A stretch of 64,000 nt of DNA. It comes from a virus. Its lineage: Duplodnaviria; Caudoviricetes. The stretch's first letter is position 1. Every line of letters begins with the position of its first letter. The notes under the pieces were generated by a model. It saw only the letters and a program-made list of their open reading frames with translations. It was not told the origin of the DNA and ran no database searches. This document shows positions 4,952 to 45,042 of this stretch, in pieces. The stretch covers positions 89,614 through 153,613 of the IMG/VR virus record IMGVR_UViG_3300021400_000130; one strand, 5' to 3'. A program made the position numbers and the translations under genes.

Positions 4952-6036
4952 TGAGTATATTAAAAGTACAAGAATTAACTCCTTCGGTCTACACTGAAGA
5001 TTCAAGAGATTTTCAATTACTAGGCAGACTGTACGACAGTGTGTTTAATGGAATGAAGTTTGATACAGATTCTATTATTTCTTTAATAGATACAAAGGAG
5101 TGTAGAACGAGTGTCTTACAATTACTTCAAACTAAGTTAGGCTTCTTTACAGAAAGAAAAATAGATGACGAAAAACTTAGGAGTATACTTGAATGCTTTC
5201 CAATAGTAGTTCGTAACAAAGGTTCATTGAAAGCAATCAAAGAAACATTATATCTATTTCTAAGAATGTATTCAGTAGCCTCTGATATGGATATCTACTA
5301 TCTTAAGACGCCAACAAGTCCACCTTTTTCAGAAGATGGTCCATGTGTTCTTTCAAATGGTAAGTTGCCTGATAATAATAGTTTGATAGTAAGAATACAC
5401 TCTTTCCATACAAAACCAGATACTTCTGTTTTAGAAGAATTATTTAGATATATTCTTCCTGCAGGAATTAACTACTATATAGAATTTGATAAAGGTACTT
5501 CTCTTCCGGACATTGTATTAAAGAGTGAAGATTCCGCAGAACTACTATTTCTTTCTGATAATATTAGTGCCAACTTAAGAGGGCATGACCAGTCACAGTC
5601 TTATAAGTTAGGTTCTGCAAATACGTCATCAATTATTTCAAATACTAGTTATGTAAGTAATCGTTTCATTGGGTACTACGATTCAGAACAAGATGCTGAC
5701 GATTATCTTGAAACTTTATCAACTCAAGTTTACAGTACCGCAATTATAAACTATACTTCTGAAGATAGTACCTCAACAGAATCAAGACCAATGATATGTG
5801 TTGCATATTCAAATAATACTCCTACTTGGTATAGAATTAATTTCTTAGGAAATATAAGTACTGAAGAAGTTAGTACAGAGGGAGGAATTATTTCAGCTCT
5901 TGAAGAAAAAGGTATAACTGTTAATAATGGAGATCTTATATTATATAATGATGTATATCTTTTAAGAGTTGAAAATAATTGGCAAGAATGTAATTATGCA
6001 AGATATATTCTAAATACATACTCTATAACGGGATAA
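4951..6036 (+). CDS. Baseplate/tail protein (P2 gpI-like N-terminus)
   Basis: P.VY...SRDFQLL, LQLL..KLGF, RNKGSLKAI and YILPAGI motifs; stop/start overlap with gp6-like gene. Confidence 0.6.
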   Translation: MSILKVQELTPSVYTEDSRDFQLLGRLYDSVFNGMKFDTDSIISLIDTKECRTSVLQLLQTKLGFFTERKIDDEKLRSILECFPIVVRNKGSLKAIKETLYLFLRMYSVASDMDIYYLKTPTSPPFSEDGPCVLSNGKLPDNNSLIVRIHSFHTKPDTSVLEELFRYILPAGINYYIEFDKGTSLPDIVLKSEDSAELLFLSDNISANLRGHDQSQSYKLGSANTSSIISNTSYVSNRFIGYYDSEQDADDYLETLSTQVYSTAIINYTSEDSTSTESRPMICVAYSNNTPTWYRINFLGNISTEEVSTEGGIISALEEKGITVNNGDLILYNDVYLLRVENNWQECNYARYILNTYSITG

Positions 6037-18379: not shown

Positions 18380-19990
18380 ATGTCCCTATGGGGTGAAGAT
18401 TTTGAAATAAAACCTGTCAAGAAGGAAGTTAAGAAAGTTACAACAAAAATTAACTCTCCAAAGAAGCCAAAGGTTGAAACTCAGAAAGTTATTAGCTCTA
18501 AGAGTGTTTCTGTATATGATAAACTACAGTTAATCTATGCAGAAGTAGACCGTATCCTTGGCAGGTATAAAGAGAATACTCAAGTTATAAGGACAAAACA
18601 AGATCTTGTTGATTATATTGATGCCTCCATCAGTAATGGTGCAATTGCAATCGACACCGAGACCAACAATAGTCTTGATCCGATTACTTGCCTTCTGATG
18701 GGGGCATGTATTTATACTCCCGGTAAAAAGAGCGCCTATATTCCCGTAAATCATGTAGATTATGTTTCTCATAATAAGTTAGAAAATCAGCTTACAGAAG
18801 AAGAAATAAAAGAACAATTTGATAGGCTGAAAAATACTAAAATCATTATGCACAACGGCAAGTTTGACTATGAAGTTATCAAGTGCACTTGTGGTTGTGT
18901 TTTAGATATATACTGGGATACAGAAATTGCAGCCCGTATCCTTGATGAGAATGAATTAGCAGCTCTAAAGAAACAGTACATACTACATATTGATAGTACT
19001 CAAGAGAAGTACGATATTGAGCATTTATTCCAAGGTATTGAATACGAAGTTGTTGACCCTGATGTTTTCGCACTATATGCAGCTACTGATGCTCTAATTA
19101 CATATCGGTTATATGAATGGCAGAAGGAACAATTCAGTAAGCCTGGAAATGAAAATCTTTATAGTGTGTTCATGAATGTTGAGATGCCAGTTGTTCAAGT
19201 TTCTGCAGAGATGGAACTTCTTGGTGTTGAAATTGACAAGGATTATGCGTCAAGATTAAGTACTAAATATCACAAGAAAGTTGAAGCAGTTGATAAAGAG
19301 ATTGACGAAGAACTTTCTAAATATTCTGATAAGATTGCTGCATGGAGACAAACAAAAGAAGCTAATTATAAAGAGTTAAATTCTAAACAAAATAAATCAG
19401 GAGAGTATACTTACAAGAAGTCAAAGAATGAACAACTTGCAGATCCTCCTCAGTTAAATAGCCCAACACAGTTAGCAATTTTGTTGTATGATATATTACA
19501 AGTTCCTATACAAGATAAGAAAGCGCCAAGAGGAACAGGAGAAGAAATTCTCAAGAAAATAAATATTCCTCTTTGTGATCTTATTCTCAAGAAAAGAGGG
19601 CTTGAGAAGTTAATAGGAACATATATTGATAAGATTCCTGCTTGTGTAAGTCCGAAAGATAACAGACTTCATGCTCATTTCAATCAACTAGGGGCAGGTA
19701 CTGGACGATTTAGTTCTAGCGACCCTAATCTTCAAAATATCCCTTCAAAGAATAAAGAAATTAGATTGATGTTTAGAGCTGGGCATACTGAACGAGAAGT
19801 TTCTAGTGAATATAACAGCTATACATTTAGTATGAATGAAGAAGTTCTTACGAGTACGGGTTGGAAAGCTGTTTCCGAACTAGTACCCAACGATGTACTT
19901 GTTTCTGATGAAGGAGAACAGGTTATTAGCACAGTAATGAAGATTGATAACTCTATTGTAGCATATGTTTCAGAGGAGGTGATTGAGTGA
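18380..19990 (+). CDS. polA: Family A DNA polymerase, N-terminal part (3'-5' exonuclease, thumb, first palm segment) ending in a Hint/intein-like tail
   Basis: IDTET, HNGKFD, YAATDA exo motifs; LNSPTQL; TGRFSSSDPNLQNIP; ends before motif A. Confidence 0.92.
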   Translation: MSLWGEDFEIKPVKKEVKKVTTKINSPKKPKVETQKVISSKSVSVYDKLQLIYAEVDRILGRYKENTQVIRTKQDLVDYIDASISNGAIAIDTETNNSLDPITCLLMGACIYTPGKKSAYIPVNHVDYVSHNKLENQLTEEEIKEQFDRLKNTKIIMHNGKFDYEVIKCTCGCVLDIYWDTEIAARILDENELAALKKQYILHIDSTQEKYDIEHLFQGIEYEVVDPDVFALYAATDALITYRLYEWQKEQFSKPGNENLYSVFMNVEMPVVQVSAEMELLGVEIDKDYASRLSTKYHKKVEAVDKEIDEELSKYSDKIAAWRQTKEANYKELNSKQNKSGEYTYKKSKNEQLADPPQLNSPTQLAILLYDILQVPIQDKKAPRGTGEEILKKINIPLCDLILKKRGLEKLIGTYIDKIPACVSPKDNRLHAHFNQLGAGTGRFSSSDPNLQNIPSKNKEIRLMFRAGHTEREVSSEYNSYTFSMNEEVLTSTGWKAVSELVPNDVLVSDEGEQVISTVMKIDNSIVAYVSEEVIE

Positions 19991-21072
19991 GTAAAGTCAA
20001 AGCCCGAAAGAAAAATATTTTTTGTGGAGCTGACTTTTCTTAGTCTCAACAAGAGCCTCGACTCTTGTCAGCTTATTCTCAAGATGAGAGAATGATAACT
20101 GCATATAAAGAAAATAAAGATTTATATGCAACTATTGCTTCTGGTGTATATAAGAATGATTACTGGGACAATATGGAGCATCATCAAGACGGGTCTCCTA
20201 ATCCGGATGGTAAGAAAAGAAGAAGTAATTGTAAAAGTCTTCTATTAGGAATTATGTACGGAAGAGGCGCTCCCAGTATTGCGGAACAGATACACTCTTC
20301 TGTTGAGGAAGCTCAGAAGATTATAAATGATTTTTATTCTCAGTTTCCAAAAGTGAAAGCGTGGACGGATAAAACAGAGCATGATGCTAAGGTTACAGGA
20401 TATGTAGAAGACCTTTGGGGTAGAAGAAGAAGACTACCAGACATTCTTTTACCGAAGTATACAATAAAAACAAAACAAGCGTCTACAGAATTTAATCCGT
20501 TACTTTATACATTAGGAAAAGTAAATAACTCCTCACAAGATCTTGTTGAAAATTATAGGAAGAAACTTGACAAAGTAAGGTCAAGAAAAGATTATCAAAC
20601 AATACAACAGGAAGCAGAAAAGAATGGTGTTACAATTGTAGACAACGGTGCTTTTATAAGTCAGGCTGAACGACAGTGTGTAAACGCTCGTATTCAGGGC
20701 GGAGCAGCTTCGATGACAAAAGTGTGCATGAGAAAGATTTTTGATGATAAAGAATTGAATGATCTACAGGCACACTTAGTATTACAGATACATGATGAAG
20801 TAATTGTAGAGTGTCCCGAAGAAAATGCAGATAAAGTTATTGATAGGTTAACTTATGTAATGAAGAATTCCGTTACTGATAAAGTAAATGTACCTTTCAA
20901 GTGTGACGGATACAAAGTAACAAGATGGTATGAAGATGACTTTGGAGATATTTTAAGAGAAAAATATCAAGCGTTGTTAGATGAAGGAAAAACAGAATCT
21001 CAAGCGTTTGATATTATGCTTGAAGAAAATAGCGAACTGACGAAAGAAGAGCTTTCTTCTTTCTTAAGTTGA
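19987..21072 (+). CDS. polA: Family A DNA polymerase, C-terminal part (motifs A, B, C) with in-frame TAG at 20041-20043
   Basis: GAGGAGGT SD, GTG overlapping upstream stop; VSKVKARKKNIFCGADFS*SQQEPR; motif B RSNCKSLLLGIMYG; motif C QIHDEV. The ORF-track start at 20065 omits the catalytic Asp. Confidence 0.85.
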
Positions 21073-21097: not shown

Positions 21098-21158
21098 ATA
21101 TTGTATATAAAGGAAGTGATTGCGTGCTGTAGCAAGTGTACACTTTAGGAGGTTATTG

Positions 21159-21410
21159 ATGATTATAGATAACATATTCATTAGAGAGGTATTTGGACTT
21201 TCAGCTTCAGTCTTTGTCCTTCTCTCTATGATGATTAAATCAAATGACCGTAAGGGTAATATTAGAATGAGATTACTGAACTTAACAGGAAGTGTCCTGA
21301 TGATAATCTACGGATTTTGGATCGGTTCTTTTAGTACAATATTTCTAAATATTATCTGTTTGGTCGCACATATTTATTATTTAATAACTTTGTTTAGAAT
21401 AAAAGACTGA
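21159..21410 (+). CDS. Small 3-TM membrane protein (YgjV/PQ-loop-like)
   Basis: AGGAGG SD; G..ASVFVLLS..MRLLNLTGSVLMIIYG..LN pattern. Confidence 0.6.
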   Translation: MIIDNIFIREVFGLSASVFVLLSMMIKSNDRKGNIRMRLLNLTGSVLMIIYGFWIGSFSTIFLNIICLVAHIYYLITLFRIKD

Positions 21411-21414
21411 TTTA

Positions 21415-21478
21415 GTGGGCCGGGTTGTTCGAAAGTCCCACCAACCCGAACCTTACAATAAAATAAAAATAATAGGAG
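21415..21478 (+). promoter_or_regulatory. Structured 5' leader of yhhQ-like gene; candidate preQ1-I-like riboswitch/pseudoknot
   Basis: CGGGTTG/CAACCCG stem, loop TTCG..CCAC, GTGGG/CCCAC crossing pair, A-rich tail to AGGAG. Confidence 0.45.
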
Positions 21479-21487
21479 TAATTTACT

Positions 21488-22252
21488 ATGATTGAAAAAT
21501 TAAAAAGAGAATGGGAAGAAACAAAAGTACTTTTTAACTGTATGCCAACAATTCCGTTTGCATTTCTTGTTTGCTCTCTGATTGCAATGAACTTTCTTGC
21601 AAATAGAGGAGGAGCTATTGGTCCTGTAGCATTTGATTGCGGTATTGTTGTTTCTTGGGTAGTGTTCCTTGCTTCTGACATGCTTGTTAAGAGGTTTGGT
21701 GCTAAAGCAGCAATTAAGATTAATATTGCAGCAATTATTCTTCAGTTAGTTTCAGTTGGTCTAATGACTCTTGGCGCAGTTATTCCTTGGGCAACTTATG
21801 GTTCTACTCCTGAAGAGTCTGCAGTATTTACTATGATTTTCAAAGCGGCTCCTTGGCCTCTGTTTGCTAGTGCAGGTGCTGCCCTGATTTCAAATGTTAT
21901 TAACTCTCTTATTTCTAAAGGCATTCTTTTGAGATTTAAAAATCGTACATCAGGTAAAGCGTATGTAACAGCCTCTTGGATTTCTACTACTGCTGGTCAG
22001 TTCTTTGACAATTTCTTGTTTGGTCTGTTTTTCAGTATCTGGCAGCCTTGGTTCCCTTGTTACGGAACATGGAAGGCTATTCCAATGCTAATTCCAATGG
22101 CCTTTGTCGGTGCACTTCTTGAACTCCTGTGTCAAGTAATCTTCACTCCGGTAGGTTTTAAGATTGCTGAGACCTGGAGAAAGAAAGGTGTAGGACAAGA
22201 ATACGTAGATATGGTAGCTGAAGCTCAAGAAGTAAATACAAATCTTGCCTAA
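21488..22252 (+). CDS. yhhQ: VUT/YhhQ-family queuosine-precursor (preQ0/preQ1) transporter
   Basis: Multi-TM; MNFLAN, G....W.VFLASDMLVKRFG, STTAGQFFDN motifs. Confidence 0.8.
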   Translation: MIEKLKREWEETKVLFNCMPTIPFAFLVCSLIAMNFLANRGGAIGPVAFDCGIVVSWVVFLASDMLVKRFGAKAAIKINIAAIILQLVSVGLMTLGAVIPWATYGSTPEESAVFTMIFKAAPWPLFASAGAALISNVINSLISKGILLRFKNRTSGKAYVTASWISTTAGQFFDNFLFGLFFSIWQPWFPCYGTWKAIPMLIPMAFVGALLELLCQVIFTPVGFKIAETWRKKGVGQEYVDMVAEAQEVNTNLA

Positions 22253-22291
22253 TCACATTAATAGAAGAAGGATCTTTTCAAAACTACGTAT

Positions 22292-22912
22292 ATGAATATT
22301 CTATGTTTTGGCGATTCTAATACTTGGGGATTTGATGCGGATAATCTGTGTCGATTCCCCAAGGAGGTCCGTTGGACCGGTAAACTATGTGAGCATCTTG
22401 GTCCGGAATATCAAGTATCTGAATTCGGAATATGTGACATGACATTTGGGACAGACGATCCTTTTTATAAATCATGTAACGGAATTCAAAATATTATTCC
22501 AGCAATAAGAGCAAACTCTCCTCTAGATTATGTTATTGTATCTCTTGGCATAAATGATTGTAAGAGATATCATTGTAATAGTGTAGAGAAGATTTTAGAT
22601 GATGCTGGAAGATTAATATATCTAATACAAGGATATTCCGACCTTAATACAGAAAGAGCACAGGTGATTGTCTGTGGTCAATGTGTTCCTACTATCGACA
22701 TTCCTCGTTGTTATCCGAGAGAATTTGATAGTGCTTCTATTTGCAAGATATATGAATTAAACAGAGAACTACGAAGATTTTGTAAGACGATTGACGTTCC
22801 TTTTATTGATCCTCCTGGAGAAATGAAATTCTGTAAAGACGGAGGGCATTACTCTAAAGAAGGTCATGAAATTTTTGCAAGAAATGTTGCACAATATATA
22901 AAATCTTTGTAA
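22292..22912 (+). CDS. SGNH/GDSL hydrolase
   Basis: FGDSNTWG, LGIND, DGGH catalytic blocks. Confidence 0.9.
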   Translation: MNILCFGDSNTWGFDADNLCRFPKEVRWTGKLCEHLGPEYQVSEFGICDMTFGTDDPFYKSCNGIQNIIPAIRANSPLDYVIVSLGINDCKRYHCNSVEKILDDAGRLIYLIQGYSDLNTERAQVIVCGQCVPTIDIPRCYPREFDSASICKIYELNRELRRFCKTIDVPFIDPPGEMKFCKDGGHYSKEGHEIFARNVAQYIKSL

Positions 22913-22946
22913 AGATTACTCATCAATAATCTCCTAAAGTGTATAG

Positions 22947-22975
22947 TTGAATTTGAATTGTTTTTATATTATACT
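22947..22975 (+). promoter_or_regulatory. Sigma-A-like phage promoter
   Basis: AG-TTGAAT-N17-TATACT. Confidence 0.7.
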
Positions 22976-23006
22976 ATAGAACAAATACGAGCAAAGGATC
23001 TTTGGA

Positions 23007-23930
23007 ATGAAAAACGAAAAAACAATCTACTATTTTTCTGGTATGTCTTACCAGGATATGAAGAGACGGTTGAATGTTGATCAGCTATTTTCTCAGTGGC
23101 ACGAGCGTAAAGGAATTGAATCTCTGATTGAGTATAAGAAGGAGCATCCAGAGCATACAGGTCGTATTATGGTGGACTCTGGATCCTTTACTGCTTATAC
23201 AAAAGGCGTCCATATTGATATTGATGACTATCTGAAGTTTATTGATAAGGTTGGAGACTATGTTACTGTGTTTGTTGCAGTTGATGATGTTCCCGACCCA
23301 ATGAACATGGATTATACAAAAGCGGAAACTACTTGGAAGAATTATCTTTATATGGTTGAAAGAATCAGACCAGAGTTACGCGATAAGCTCATTCCGGTAT
23401 TTCACTACGGCGAGGACTTCAAGTGGCTCCGTAATATGTTGGAGTATACACATCCTGACGGGTCTCATATTAAGTATATTGGACTTGCTATTTCTCTTGA
23501 AGGAACAAAAAGAGTTAGAGTTAACTGGGGTAGAGAGTGTATGCGAGTTATCGCAGAAAGTTCTAATCCGAATGTAATGACTCATGCTTTTGGTGTTGGA
23601 GTTAAATCTGTTCTTGATAATATTACAGTAACTTCTACGGATGCTACAAGCTGGGTAAAAAGAGCGGCTTACGGAATGATTAGTATTGATGACCAGTCGA
23701 TTCATGTCTCAGAAGTTATGAAAAATCGTGCAGACGACAGATATCTTGGTCAGCAAAATGTAGCACTTCAAGAAGAAGTAATGAAGCGTATTAAAGAAAA
23801 AGGATTTACTTTTGAAGAGTTAGAGCAAGATTCAGGTAAACGAGCAGAGTTTAATATTCTTGATACTCTTGACTGGGTAGCAAAACTTGAACCGCACAAC
23901 ACAACTTTTAAGAACGGATTAGGGTGGTAA
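23007..23930 (+). CDS. dpdA: tRNA-guanine transglycosylase-like protein, probable DpdA-type DNA 7-deazaguanine insertion enzyme
   Basis: MVDSGSFT, VDDVP, IPVFHYGE, YIGL, HAFG, STDATSW motifs of TGT/DpdA barrel; downstream of yhhQ. Confidence 0.7.
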   Translation: MKNEKTIYYFSGMSYQDMKRRLNVDQLFSQWHERKGIESLIEYKKEHPEHTGRIMVDSGSFTAYTKGVHIDIDDYLKFIDKVGDYVTVFVAVDDVPDPMNMDYTKAETTWKNYLYMVERIRPELRDKLIPVFHYGEDFKWLRNMLEYTHPDGSHIKYIGLAISLEGTKRVRVNWGRECMRVIAESSNPNVMTHAFGVGVKSVLDNITVTSTDATSWVKRAAYGMISIDDQSIHVSEVMKNRADDRYLGQQNVALQEEVMKRIKEKGFTFEELEQDSGKRAEFNILDTLDWVAKLEPHNTTFKNGLGW

Positions 23931-23931
23931 T

Positions 23932-24639
23932 ATGTCAGTACTTATTACAGGAACTAGTTATGGTGTAGGAAGAGCAACTGCTCTTAAGTTTATGGAAGAG
24001 GGTTATTCTGTAATCGGGCTTGATTGGAAGCCTGCTACTATTCCTCTTTCCAATAGTTATATTCATCATCAATGTGATGTAAGTGATTTCAATTCTCTTC
24101 CTGATCTGATTAACATTGAATATATTGTTAATAATGCAGGAATTGTAACCCCGAAGGCTAATGCTATTGCTGTAAACCTCATTGGCTATATGAATATTAT
24201 AAAGAAGTATAGCGGAGACCCCGCACTGAAATCAATTGTTCAGATTGGTAGTACAGCTTCTATCAAAGGTTATGACAATATGGAATATTGTTGCTCTCAG
24301 GGAGGTCGTGATGCTCTTACTAAGTGGGCCGCGAACAATCTAGGTCACGATAGTCGTCACGTATTAGTTAATTCTTTGAATATTGATGGCATTGTTCCCG
24401 CTCCTGAAGGTAGTCTTGATGGAACGGCACTAGAGCCAGAGCTCTACGCAGACCCCGAACTTATGAAGGCAATTCAAGACCTGAGTATTACAGGTCGTCT
24501 GTCTACTGTTCATGATATTGCAGAATGGATATTCTTTGTACTTACTAAGAACAGAATTATGACAGGTGAAATTATTAAAATTGACGGCGAACTTATGAAC
24601 TGTTATAAGTTTATCCCCTATCCTGGATGGGATACTTGA
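23932..24639 (+). CDS. Short-chain dehydrogenase/reductase
   Basis: LITGTSYGVG, CDVSD, VNNAG, IGSTAS, YCCSQ (YxxxK Lys replaced by Gln), TGEIIKIDG. Confidence 0.88.
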   Translation: MSVLITGTSYGVGRATALKFMEEGYSVIGLDWKPATIPLSNSYIHHQCDVSDFNSLPDLINIEYIVNNAGIVTPKANAIAVNLIGYMNIIKKYSGDPALKSIVQIGSTASIKGYDNMEYCCSQGGRDALTKWAANNLGHDSRHVLVNSLNIDGIVPAPEGSLDGTALEPELYADPELMKAIQDLSITGRLSTVHDIAEWIFFVLTKNRIMTGEIIKIDGELMNCYKFIPYPGWDT

Positions 24640-26846: not shown

Positions 26847-28031
26847 ATGGCAGATAGTAAAAGTCTGAATGAAGTTCTAAAATCAATTTCAAAGAAGTAC
26901 GGAGATTCTGTTGTTAAGTTTGGTGTAGATGACCTGTGTGTTGACGGCGTGCTTTCGCTTGGTAGCCCGGGTCTTGATTTTGCAATCTACGGAGGAATTC
27001 CTGAAGGAAGAGTAGTAGAGTTTTCTGGTCAAGAAGGAAGTGGCAAGACCACCAATGCGTTTCTTGCAGCTGCATCCTATCAGAAGATTGAGCTACAGCG
27101 TAATCCTGATAACCCGAGAGCTATTGTATTCCTTGATAATGAAGGAACTGCTGACCCTGTTTGGGCTGCAAAACTTGGCTACGACATGAGTGAGGATGCT
27201 CCTGTTAAGACTGTCTGTATTCGTCCTGAAGCACAGTCTGCTGAAGAGATTTTTGATATGGCACTTGATATGTTAAAGACAGGCGAAGTAGGCCTGCTTA
27301 TCTTTGACAGTATTGCTACTCTTGTTCCAGCTCAGATTGCTGACGAGTCTATGGAAAAGCAGCAGATGGGCGGAATTGCAAAAGCTCTTACTAGATTTGC
27401 TAATACAGCTATTGGTCTTCTGAGGAAGTATAAAGCTACACTGATTGCAATCAATCAAGTTAGAGAGAACATGACTGGATATGGTGACCCTCTGACTACT
27501 CCTGGTGGTCGGGCATGGAAACATGCTTGTTCTATGAGACTTATGTTTAAGAGAGGAGACTTCTTTGACGAGGACGGAAATGTTTTAACTAAGAAAGCAG
27601 AGTCTCCTGCAGGTCATATTATTGAGTGTTACGTTCTTAAGACGAAGGTCTGCAAGTGGGACCGTAAACTTGGGATGGCTCATCTAAACTATACAAAGGG
27701 TATTGACTGGTTACAGGATACGATTGATATTGCTACGCATCTAGGACTAATTGATAATTCTGTTCAAGGATCTTTTAAGATTATTGATCCTGATACTGGA
27801 GAGCTTGCTCACGATGAGGAAGGTAACGAGATTAAGATCCGAGGGAAAAAGAATGTGTATACATACTTCCAGACCCACCCAGTAGAAGCTCGTAAACTCT
27901 ACGACAGATGTTATGACAGACTTCGTCAGAAAGAAGATCCATTCATTAAGAGCTTCGAGTCGCTACTTTCCATTGACCTTAGCGAGAAGCTGGGAGTTGA
28001 TATTGCAAATACAAACCTTGAGGAACTGTAA
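26847..28031 (+). CDS. recA: RecA recombinase
   Basis: GGIPEGRVVEFSGQEGSGKTT, IFDSIA, INQVRE, TPGGRAWKH. Confidence 0.95.
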   Translation: MADSKSLNEVLKSISKKYGDSVVKFGVDDLCVDGVLSLGSPGLDFAIYGGIPEGRVVEFSGQEGSGKTTNAFLAAASYQKIELQRNPDNPRAIVFLDNEGTADPVWAAKLGYDMSEDAPVKTVCIRPEAQSAEEIFDMALDMLKTGEVGLLIFDSIATLVPAQIADESMEKQQMGGIAKALTRFANTAIGLLRKYKATLIAINQVRENMTGYGDPLTTPGGRAWKHACSMRLMFKRGDFFDEDGNVLTKKAESPAGHIIECYVLKTKVCKWDRKLGMAHLNYTKGIDWLQDTIDIATHLGLIDNSVQGSFKIIDPDTGELAHDEEGNEIKIRGKKNVYTYFQTHPVEARKLYDRCYDRLRQKEDPFIKSFESLLSIDLSEKLGVDIANTNLEEL

Positions 28032-28384
28032 TGACAAGTAACAAAGAAGCGACGAGATATTATAGCGACTTGCATGAGAAGTCTGTTTGTAGAGCTCTTG
28101 ATGCTACACAGACTCCAAATAGCGGAGCAACGAAATGGAGAAAAGGAGACGTTGTACAAAAACAAGCGTCTCTTTTGATTGAATGTAAAACAGTTATGAC
28201 AGAAAAGCAATCCGTTTCTATTAAAAAAGAATGGATTGATAAAAATAGAGAAGAGGCTTTCTCTAATCGTCTTGATAATAGTTGTCTTTGTATTAATTTT
28301 GGACCCAACACTGACAACTACTATGTCATTAGTGAAAAGTTAATGAAATTTCTTGTTGAAAAACTTCAAGACGAGAATAGTTGA
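28031..28384 (+). CDS. PD-(D/E)XK nuclease, Hjc-like resolvase
   Basis: HE, PNSGA, KGDV, IECKT. Confidence 0.7.
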   Translation: MTSNKEATRYYSDLHEKSVCRALDATQTPNSGATKWRKGDVVQKQASLLIECKTVMTEKQSVSIKKEWIDKNREEAFSNRLDNSCLCINFGPNTDNYYVISEKLMKFLVEKLQDENS

Positions 28385-28409
28385 AATTTAGTCAATTATA
28401 CTATATAAT
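28381..28409 (+). promoter_or_regulatory. Sigma-A-like phage promoter
   Basis: AG-TTGAAA-N17-TATAAT. Confidence 0.75.
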
Positions 28410-28444
28410 ATAAGTGTAAATAAAAATTGACGGAGGTCTTAGTT

Positions 28445-28864
28445 ATGAGTTACGATTTCGAGTTTGATTTTGATTCTTTCGGCAACGTCATCATGAATGA
28501 TGTTGATTTTGAAGAGACTGAGTTTGACGATGCTGACCCGTATGATATGGAATGGGATGACCATTATTATGATTATGCGGATTGGAACTCTGACTACTTG
28601 GACGATGGTTGTCCCATTGACGATGATTATGAGGATGATGATCTGTTCTATGAGGATCAGCTTCACGATTACGAGCGTAAACTTCGTTCTCGTATCGCTA
28701 ATAACGAAACTATCTATTCTTCGGAGATCGACATGTATTCTGACCTCTTTAAAGATGCTTTCGGATTTCGTCCTCATGGTCTTATGGGCTGGCTTACTGA
28801 GTATGAAAACATTATTGATGACTATGCTGAAGCCCGTGCAAAGATTGAAGCTAATAGGAAGTGA
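28445..28864 (+). CDS. Highly acidic protein
   Basis: GGAGG SD; D/E plus aromatic-rich N-half; YSDLFKDAFGFRP C-terminal motif. Confidence 0.7.
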   Translation: MSYDFEFDFDSFGNVIMNDVDFEETEFDDADPYDMEWDDHYYDYADWNSDYLDDGCPIDDDYEDDDLFYEDQLHDYERKLRSRIANNETIYSSEIDMYSDLFKDAFGFRPHGLMGWLTEYENIIDDYAEARAKIEANRK

Positions 28865-43710: not shown

Positions 43711-45042
43711 ATGATTGGTAATTATGAGGAATATCCAGAAACTTTAAATCGTCTCTTTATAGAAGATAAGACCAGAGGTTTTGATGCAAAAACTGATGGA
43801 ATATATGCAAGAACAATAACATTTCAAGTTACTGAAGATTGTTGCATGAAATGCACTTATTGTTATCAACACAATAAGAAACCAAATGTTATGTCCTTTG
43901 AAATAGCAAAACAGTTTATTGATGATTTACTTTCAGGTTCTGATAAATTATCAAACTATATTCCGAAAGACACAGTTGGAATTGTTCTTGAATTCATAGG
44001 CGGCGAACCATTTCTTGAAATAGATCTTATTAGTAAAATAACGGATTACTATTTTGAAGAGTGTACTAGATTGCATCACCCTTGGACAACAAAAACAAGA
44101 GTTTCAATTTCTACTAATGGACTTTTATATTTTGATCCAAGAGTTCAAGAGTACTTAAAAAAGCATCAGAAACATTTATCCCTCAATATAACAGTTGATG
44201 GAAATAAAGAGCTTCATGACAGTTGTAGAATTGATCTTGAAGGAAAAGGAACTTATGACAGAGTAATTTCTGCAGTAGACGATTATACTACAAAGTACGG
44301 TAAAGGTTCACTTCCTACAAAGATGACAATCTCTCCTGATAATGTTTCTAATCTATATAAAGCTGTTGTAGCAATGATTGAGTATGGATATCCGATTGTC
44401 AATTTCAATCCTGTTTATGAAGATGTTTGGAAAAGAGAAGATGCAAGAATTTTCTATAAAGAGTTAAAAAAACTTGCAGATTATCTCATAGAACATAATA
44501 AACTAGACCCACTCGTATGTCCTTATCTTGCTCCAATGTATTGTCACCCTATGTTACCTGACGATGACCACAATTGGTGTGGCGGAACAGGGGCAATGTT
44601 AGCAATAGATTGGCAAGGAAATCTATATCCTTGTATTCGTTACATGCCGAATGCGTTGGGAGACGAAAGACCCCCTTATGTTATTGGAACAGTTAAAGAC
44701 GGAATAATGAGCACAAAAGAACAGTGCGACAGAATTGATTGTCTTAATTGTATAACAAGAAAGAGTCAGTCTACCGAAGAATGTTTCAACTGTCCTATAG
44801 CAAGCGGCTGTGGATGGTGTTCCGGATACTGTTATGAATTATATGGTACACCCAATAAAAGAACTACATTTATATGTGATTTACATAAAGCAAGAGCACT
44901 TGCTTTAACATATATGTGGAATAAGTACTATAGAAAGATTGGGTCAAAAGATTCTTTCAAGATGGATATTCCTGAGGAATGGGCTTTACAAATAATTGAT
45001 ACAGATGAACTGAAGATGTTAAAAGATTTAGTAAAGGAGTAA
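43711..45042 (+). CDS. Radical SAM/SPASM peptide maturase, CXXX-repeat target family
   Basis: ITFQVTEDCCMKCTYCYQ (CxxxCxxC), FIGGEPF, STNG, SPASM Cys set CGGTG..YPC..CFNCPIASGCGWCSGYC..C. Confidence 0.9.
   Translation: MIGNYEEYPETLNRLFIEDKTRGFDAKTDGIYARTITFQVTEDCCMKCTYCYQHNKKPNVMSFEIAKQFIDDLLSGSDKLSNYIPKDTVGIVLEFIGGEPFLEIDLISKITDYYFEECTRLHHPWTTKTRVSISTNGLLYFDPRVQEYLKKHQKHLSLNITVDGNKELHDSCRIDLEGKGTYDRVISAVDDYTTKYGKGSLPTKMTISPDNVSNLYKAVVAMIEYGYPIVNFNPVYEDVWKREDARIFYKELKKLADYLIEHNKLDPLVCPYLAPMYCHPMLPDDDHNWCGGTGAMLAIDWQGNLYPCIRYMPNALGDERPPYVIGTVKDGIMSTKEQCDRIDCLNCITRKSQSTEECFNCPIASGCGWCSGYCYELYGTPNKRTTFICDLHKARALALTYMWNKYYRKIGSKDSFKMDIPEEWALQIIDTDELKMLKDLVKE

Follow-up and report, generated by a model that had tools for sequence, protein, structure and literature searches.

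A putative salvage-fed 7-deazaguanine DNA-modification module in the replication operon of a tailed phage

Introduction

Modification of phage DNA with 7-deazaguanines as a protection against restriction was known before this work, and uptake of the precursor had already been suggested. The nearest characterised system to the one described here is that of Streptococcus phage Dp-1, which has a 9g-type DpdA transglycosylase and dPreQ1 in its DNA, amounting to about 1.7% of G (Hutinet et al. 2019, PMC6884629). Dp-1 makes its own preQ1 with FolE, QueD, QueE, QueC and a QueF-like protein, and uses the transporter QueT. The 'Group 3' phages, by comparison, contain DpdA without synthesis genes; use of host preQ0 or uptake was proposed for them, and YhhQ was noted in some phages (PMC6884629). 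Here we describe a cluster of five genes in a 64-kb window, which is the whole stretch of viral DNA that was analysed (64,000 nucleotides of Caudoviricetes record IMGVR_UViG_3300021400_000130, positions 89,614 to 153,613). The cluster encodes a small membrane protein, a YhhQ-family transporter, an SGNH enzyme, a DpdA-type transglycosylase and a short-chain dehydrogenase/reductase (SDR). On balance, we think that these genes and the leader before yhhQ probably form a salvage-fed 7-deazaguanine DNA-modification module within the phage replication operon. The element of this reading that we consider clearly likely is that a 7-deazaguanine enters the DNA from a salvaged precursor.

In the pathway that we propose, the infected cell would take up a queuosine-family compound through YhhQ, perhaps aided by the small PnuC/YgjV-like protein. 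The NAD-type SDR would convert this cargo, most likely queuine or a related hydroxylated form, to a base that the transglycosylase can use, most likely preQ1. DpdA would swap guanines in new phage DNA for that base, and the modified DNA would be protected from host nucleases. The SGNH enzyme would be optional, either removing an acyl group from the precursor or transferring one to the aminomethyl group of the base once it is in the DNA. A de novo pathway of the Dp-1 type would have been replaced in this phage by a two-gene salvage unit that also occurs in gut Clostridia, the probable host group.

A DpdA-type gene in a phage without precursor synthesis genes

The fourth gene of the cluster (23007..23930, + strand) encodes a 307-aa protein predicted to form a TIM barrel of the tRNA-guanine transglycosylase (TGT) fold. 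It matched phrog_887, 'queuine tRNA-ribosyltransferase' (E 7.9e-39), and had no Pfam match, including none to the Pfam TGT family. Using tblastn, we found DpdA genes in 175 phage records, with Dp-1 as the best match (37% identity, E 1e-45), followed by Bacillus phage Flasso and then by the 9g and CAjan groups (26–27% identity, E 1e-17 to 1e-19). A structural model computed with 28 relatives (pLDDT 88, pTM 0.86) gave ArcTGT (1j2b/1iq8) and Z. mobilis TGT as the top solved matches in a fold search (probability 1.0, TM about 0.55); a sequence search of solved structures returned nothing useful. Residues D57, H193, G196, S210 and D212 were invariant in the 28 relatives, down to 22% identity. D57 lies in VDSGSF (the DSG motif) and D212 in TSTDATSW (S-x-D), and by motif position these two residues would be the catalytic Asp pair of TGT enzymes. 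The C-terminal part of the protein contains no Cys, so the Cys-rich Zn motif of the tRNA enzymes is missing. By sequence, the protein groups with phage DpdA and not with tRNA TGT, and its target is probably DNA. In a sub-group of DpdA proteins (395–406 aa; L017:5512-6732, L031:8782-9990; P0210-P0240; loci used for comparison are given as L numbers, with positions within each locus), about 90 inserted residues precede the last helices.

The window forms the last 64 kb of a gut-phage genome whose record is complete (153,613 bp, with terminal repeats of 107 bp). Six-frame family searches of the whole genome gave no match to QueC, FolE, FolE2, QueD/PTPS or QueF. QueE was not found either, as neither of the two radical-SAM genes in the genome matches a QueE model: the radical-SAM/SPASM gene at 43711-45042 of the window encodes a CXXX-repeat peptide maturase (TIGR04115, E 1e-126), and the other, at 27564-28478 of the genome (L001:1378-2292), encodes a 304-aa protein that matches phrog_16999 'Fe-S oxidoreductase' and has a faint likeness to MoaA. 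The phage must therefore take the base from its host or from the surroundings. A preliminary description of the window had placed the five genes together between polymerase and clamp, had seen no folE, queD, queE, queC or queF there, and had proposed that the TGT-like protein is a DpdA fed by an imported precursor. All five genes are indeed present on the + strand, the missing genes are also missing from the complete genome, and import in place of synthesis is well supported.

The importer candidate is yhhQ (21488..22252, + strand), a single-copy gene according to a six-frame search, whose product belongs to the YhhQ/COG1738 (Vut_1) transporters and is a putative importer of queuosine-family bases. 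It matched Vut_1 (PF02592) with an E value of 1.6e-19; the score was 71.2 bits (cut-off 27.2), and the six-frame search gave 72.4 bits. The TIGR00697 model, 'queuosine precursor transporter', scored 37.4 bits, below its cut-off of 50.95. The protein is thus a divergent member of the family, and its substrate cannot be transferred from that of E. coli YhhQ.

The arrangement of these genes mirrors that of Dp-1, in which the precursor transporter lies directly before DpdA and is followed by clamp, RecU and recombinase genes. The five genes of the cluster, all in the same direction within 21159-24639, lie between a split PolA gene and a sliding-clamp gene in a window whose genes are nearly all on the + strand. 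A DnaB-like helicase, a primase and PolA, split in two genes, lie on the 5' side, and a beta-clamp-like gene, RecU and RecA follow in that order on the 3' side. We found no convincing + strand terminator among the five genes and the adjoining replication genes. Unlike Dp-1, this phage has none of the preQ1 synthesis genes and no QueT; it has YhhQ, a protein with three transmembrane helices (3-TM), the SDR and the SGNH enzyme instead.

An importer–dehydrogenase pair shared with gut Clostridia

The SDR gene (23932..24639, + strand) starts one base past the dpdA stop codon. The contexts of close and distant SDR members that we compared were all phage contigs, and every one that was long enough to judge contained a DpdA-like gene; YhhQ was also present in all of these except L022 and L023. 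Close SDR-bearing relatives share the replication module, and more distant SDR-bearing phage loci were found as well (L024, L025, L036, L044 and L045). The cluster genes were found together in numerous phage contigs, both related and unrelated, and chance does not explain their clustering. The linkage to dpdA in relatives, which the preliminary description had named as a check, was borne out for the SDR and, less universally, for SGNH. Neither YhhQ nor this SDR occurs in the DpdA loci of other clades, or in Dp-1 or Flasso. The SDR is absent from all isolate phages in the GenBank phage collection, which also contains no phage DNA nearly identical to the window.

A search of bacteria (one genome per species) with Lys-type SDR queries gave at least 597 matching stretches, and we inspected the neighbourhoods of the 80 best of these loci, mostly from gut Clostridia. 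In at least 67 of the 80, yhhQ lay directly upstream of the SDR gene, and the two genes usually overlapped by 4 nt. DpdA was present in none of the 80 loci, and there was no further conserved neighbour. The SDR is therefore tied to the transporter more than to DpdA. Among 25 bacterial genomes with the yhhQ–SDR pair, all encoded QueA and 23 encoded TGT, but a real QueC (191 bits) was found in only one and a strong QueF in only one; weak partial QueC matches in the remaining genomes were taken for paralogues. These bacteria thus need preQ1 but for the most part cannot make or reduce preQ0, which makes the importer–SDR pair its obvious supplier. We let these bacteria stand in for the likely host group. 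They have no preQ0 or preQ1 synthesis, a difference from the setting proposed for Group 3 phages, and a phage that infects such bacteria must import a queuosine-family compound.

The bacterial operon, which lacks DpdA and occurs in bacteria with TGT and QueA, puts the SDR on the salvage side of the pathway, ahead of the transglycosylase. We conclude that the phage SDR is most likely a salvage enzyme that acts ahead of DpdA and not a tailoring enzyme. Two points make preQ1 its most likely product: TGT and QueA are what the bacterial system supplies, and dPreQ1 is present in Dp-1 DNA. Taken as one specific claim, that the SDR acts before insertion and yields preQ1, this comes close to an even prospect in our estimate without quite reaching it. 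The preliminary description had suggested that the SDR may tailor the base, a reading that the DpdA-free operon of TGT/QueA bacteria does not support; its side remark that the enzyme might convert scavenged queuine fits the new evidence best.

The bacterial yhhQ–SDR pair evidently feeds tRNA-TGT, and the phage module might likewise serve translation instead of DNA modification, with the TGT-like enzyme and the salvage pair raising tRNA queuosine during infection. There is precedent for such a role in the 48 phages that have precursor genes without DpdA, for which a boost of Q precursor was suggested (Hutinet et al. 2019, PMC6884629). We consider this explanation very unlikely, because the phage enzyme has neither a Pfam TGT match nor the Cys-rich Zn motif and groups with the DpdAs of phages with proven DNA modification, because dpdA has the same place between the polymerase and clamp genes that it has in Dp-1, and because bacteria with the yhhQ–SDR pair already have a TGT of their own.

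Sequence and predicted chemistry of the dehydrogenase

The SDR matched adh_short (E 4.6e-12), and alignment to solved SDRs confirmed the earlier observation that YCCSQ falls on the catalytic YxxxK. The protein keeps the cofactor motif TGTSYGVG (TGxxxGxG), NNAG, S107 and Y119. The Lys of YxxxK is absent, with Gln123 in its place in all 121 close sequences, and the segment GSTASxKGYDNxxYCxSQG(A/G)RDA is nearly invariant among 120 SDR homologues of 63–97% identity. The subfamily is narrow, as 1.84 billion proteins yielded only 116 clusters at E<1e-10, and its distant members mostly have Lys. In a set of 58 representatives, we found an Arg at +7 from the Tyr, three past the Gln or Met (R126 in the window protein), in all eight with Gln or Met and in none of the 48 with Lys. 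We read this pattern as a positive charge that has moved to the Arg, with function apparently retained, such that the Lys-to-Gln change would not be the mark of a dead SDR. A full-text literature search found no described function for this family.

These sequences also bear on whether the SDR is a non-homologous replacement of QueF, with YhhQ importing preQ0 and the SDR reducing the nitrile to preQ1. Such a role would suit bacteria that have the yhhQ–SDR pair and need preQ1 for TGT and QueA but lack QueF, and this phage family has lost the QueF found in Dp-1 and Flasso; preQ0 uptake has also been reported for E. coli YhhQ (cited in PMC6884629). The clade of the window SDR has a Cys just after the catalytic Tyr, and we considered this Cys as a QueF-like nucleophile. 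This candidate was ruled out, as neither that Cys nor any other is kept throughout the SDR subfamily, a finding that speaks against thioimide chemistry of the QueF kind. Furthermore, 54 of the 58 representatives have Asp31, which lies at the end of strand 2. An Asp at this position marks NAD preference in classical SDRs, whereas QueF uses NADPH. Phage locus L024 contains the full FolE–QueD–QueE–QueC–QueF set, with a two-domain QueF, and a formyltransferase, yet keeps an adjacent yhhQ–SDR pair. To our knowledge, no SDR carries out a four-electron nitrile reduction. Together, these points make replacement of QueF improbable.

By contrast, a hydroxylated cargo such as queuine would fit an NAD-type alcohol dehydrogenase better than nitrile reduction does. 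We name queuine itself as the cargo only tentatively, as the leading candidate but one that is more likely wrong than right. Prediction of a complex between DpdA and the SDR with alignments gave a score of 0.00 in a run that had no controls, and has no bearing either way.

Leader RNAs upstream of yhhQ

Many loci share a conserved leader before yhhQ, consisting of a covarying 5–8-bp stem, a loop that is mostly UUC...AUC, an A-rich tail and a Shine–Dalgarno (SD) sequence. The commonest form upstream of the yhhQ–SDR pair was CGACAG-UUCGUUUGUACCAUC-CUGUCG with an A-rich tail, often with a terminator-like hairpin after it. The Rfam PreQ1 model (RF00522) matched this region in L048 (a bacterium; 5136-5182, 23.5 bits) and L025 (a phage; 2726-2772, 28.9 bits), in both cases below the gathering score of 39. 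A covariance model built from six leader copies identified 16 copies at an E value of 1e-6 or better. Besides L048 and L025, the family lies directly upstream of the yhhQ–SDR pair at 13 further bacterial loci (for example, L050:3572-3618). As its copies score below the RF00522 gathering score or escape that model altogether, the yhhQ–SDR leader family may be an uncatalogued preQ1-I variant. At the gathering score, Rfam reported no riboswitch in 11 bacterial loci, and focused Rfam searches found nothing in L063 and only a chance-level preQ1-II match in L068. MAFFT alignments of the leaders (A6-A8) were structurally inconsistent and were dropped.

In the window, the candidate leader (21421..21487, + strand) begins with a 7-bp hairpin in which 21421-21427 pairs with 21442-21448 around the loop UUCGAAAGUCCCAC. 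An A-rich spacer follows, then the SD sequence AGGAG (21474-21478) and the yhhQ ATG. The leader of L003 has a nearly identical loop, with two stem pairs compensatorily changed. The architecture of the window leader looks like that of the preQ1-I leaders before yhhQ in relatives. However, it gave no RF00522 match at E values up to 10 in a 106-nt search and no match in an Rfam search of the window at E values up to 1, and it was missed by two covariance models, R1 and R2, built from the leaders of other loci. We therefore leave it as a candidate and do not call it a riboswitch.

A variable accessory slot beside dpdA

The gene between yhhQ and dpdA (22292..22912, + strand) encodes an SGNH/GDSL hydrolase or acyltransferase that matched Lipase_GDSL_2 (PF13472, E 1e-11) and PF00657. 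Blocks I (GDSNTWG), II (the FG...FGT region), III (GIND) and V (DGGH) are recognisable and the Ser-Asp-His triad is intact; GDS, GxND and DGxH are kept in 12 phage homologues of 50–94% identity. In the window enzyme and most phage homologues, the sequence of block II is EFGICDMTFGT, compared with EEGLxGRTT in relatives from Clostridia (31–34% identity). The window type occupies the same slot in two further contigs, one of which also has a deoxyribosyltransferase-like (NDT-like) gene, and an unrelated SGNH family occupies the slot in L008, L035, L036 and L041. The nearest relatives of the window, with 91% identity in DpdA, have no SGNH gene and only the NDT-like gene there. A gene that recurs at the slot but is missing from the closest relatives is best described as a dispensable accessory. 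De-acylation of the precursor and acyl transfer to the base are both possible roles, the latter as a form of tailoring.

The slot may also be permissive, with SGNH as an unrelated passenger, such as an esterase acting on the cell envelope or on a host metabolite. Besides SGNH, the position after yhhQ holds the NDT-like gene, a DUF7487 protein, small open reading frames (ORFs) or nothing, and the nearest non-phage relatives of the window enzyme are the ordinary GDSL esterases of Clostridia noted above. A passenger would not, however, be expected to arrive twice from unrelated SGNH families at the same position in different phage lineages, or to keep its place and catalytic triad over such a range of divergence as the window type does. 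For the SGNH gene alone, we regard passenger status as possible but doubtful.

The NDT-like gene lies between yhhQ and dpdA in L003 (5404-5892) and L127 (4520-5011) and matched PF05014 (E 7.5e-18). Its product may release the base from a scavenged nucleoside or nucleotide. We considered whether NDT-like and SGNH genes are mutual alternatives, and this was ruled out because L127 contains both.

Further variation was found downstream of the SDR. In many relatives, the SDR is followed by a 295-aa protein with a GT-A glycosyltransferase fold, whose best matches were the nucleoside glycosyltransferase AvpGT and TarP. Often, a CofD-like protein (571–581 aa, with a C-terminal HAD-like DxDxT motif recognised by eye) and a MobA-like nucleotidyltransferase come next; stretches that contain all three genes are L018:8711-12024, L017:7480-10850 and L022:6323-9660. 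None of the three is present in the genome studied here. In relatives, these genes may glycosylate the modified base or carry out phospho-transfer on it, which suggests further base decoration in some lineages.

This variety speaks for a rival reading, in which the SDR, SGNH or both tailor the base after import or insertion, to give a reduced, oxidised or acylated preQ derivative. Slots adjacent to the core hold different group-transfer enzymes across phages: a DpdN-like formyltransferase in L024, the GT-A protein with or without CofD-HAD and nucleotidyltransferase genes in L017, L018 and L022, and the two unrelated SGNH families. In addition, the substrate loop of the window SGNH is remodelled in a manner common to most phage copies, and the window SDR belongs to a long-branched, phage-only clade with a changed catalytic tetrad. 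Against this, the bacterial SDR operates in a two-gene operon with the importer, without DpdA or tailoring genes; the SDR stays the same where the tailoring-type genes change; and the closest relatives do without SGNH. Tailoring by these enzymes is, in our view, unlikely, though less so than replacement of QueF.

Other features of the cluster

The first gene of the cluster (21159..21410, + strand) encodes the small 3-TM membrane protein, of 83 aa when read from the ATG at 21159, which is preceded by AGGAGG; the longest ORF starts from a TTG at 21120. The protein has three predicted hydrophobic helices and a weak match to Imp-YgjV (PF10688, E 0.002). Its neighbours in a protein atlas were viral 'inner membrane protein' clusters, which lead to NMN_transporter (PnuC) and YgjV, and we regard it as a candidate PnuC/YgjV-like half-transporter. 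Homologues occur in the same cluster in L003, L008, L017, L031, L035, L039 and L041.

Upstream of the cluster, the family A DNA polymerase at 18380-21072 is split into two ORFs of 536 and 335 aa. Relatives have either an undivided polymerase gene (773 aa in L018) or one into which a GIY-YIG/NUMOD3 homing-endonuclease gene is inserted (L008 and L033).

Discussion

The salvage-fed module that we propose can be compared with several described systems. It shares with the Group 3 phages a DpdA without a preQ0 pathway. The paper that defined that group reported no YhhQ pattern and mentioned no SDR (PMC6884629), whereas here YhhQ, SDR and DpdA are conserved together as a unit. The second point of comparison is the set of phage enzymes that tailor 7-deazaguanines, namely DpdM (methyl), DpdN (formyl) and DpdL (Cui et al. 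2023, PMC10516641). These are likewise variable, base-altering extras near dpdA, and a formyltransferase of this kind is present in the SDR-bearing locus L024, but a dehydrogenase, YhhQ and CofD are not mentioned in that study.

The bacterial side of the proposal has its own parallel. The logic of importing a queuosine-family compound, converting it to preQ1 and passing it to a transglycosylase resembles queuine salvage in Clostridioides difficile, which, in work attributed to Yuan et al. in 2019, reportedly relies on the hydrolase QueK, the importer QrtT and the radical-SAM queuine lyase QueL. In both cases, gut Firmicutes without de novo synthesis and leaders of the preQ1 type are involved. 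The two differ in that the importer here belongs to another family and the converting enzyme would be an NAD-type SDR, where C. difficile has a radical-SAM lyase.

Several observations weigh against the salvage-fed module. The cargo of YhhQ is not fixed by so divergent a family member, and the chemistry of both SDR and DpdA is predicted from sequence. If YhhQ imports preQ1 itself, the SDR would not be needed for supply and may do something else. Conversion of queuine to preQ1 by alcohol oxidation would require an additional C–N cleavage, to which no enzyme is assigned. In a quick tree, the window SDR falls in a clade separate from five generic SDRs, and this clade is phage-only and sits on a long branch, such that its activity may differ from that of the bacterial Lys-type enzymes; the direction of SDR transfer between lineages was not resolved by this tree. 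The GT-A gene, with or without CofD-HAD and nucleotidyltransferase genes, after the SDR in relatives leaves room for a tailoring role. Several phages with DpdA only had little or no modification when examined by others, with none in Orion and traces in 7-11 (PMC6884629). Finally, neither RF00522 nor the R1 and R2 models pick up the window leader.

A bolder extension of the salvage-fed module is that the YhhQ-coupled SDR is an undescribed, non-radical queuosine-salvage enzyme of hundreds of gut Clostridia species, which converts a queuosine-family compound, likeliest queuine, to preQ1 and was captured by phages to feed DpdA; the remodelled SGNH might then acylate the inserted base and give an undescribed DNA base. 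We offer this as a speculative scenario that is more apt to fail than to hold.

What is new here is a conserved unit of an importer and a dedicated SDR in place of a five-gene de novo pathway, together with the atypical SDR and the variable accessory slot. Such a salvage unit would tie phage DNA modification to the queuine and preQ1 economy of the gut. The SDR family occurs in at least several hundred species of gut bacteria that need preQ1 without making it, and knowing its function would close a gap in queuosine salvage, which as a micronutrient pathway belongs to both the microbiota and the host. With SGNH, deoxyribosyltransferase-like, glycosyltransferase and formyltransferase genes among the variable extras, this group of phages would be worth searching for new DNA bases.

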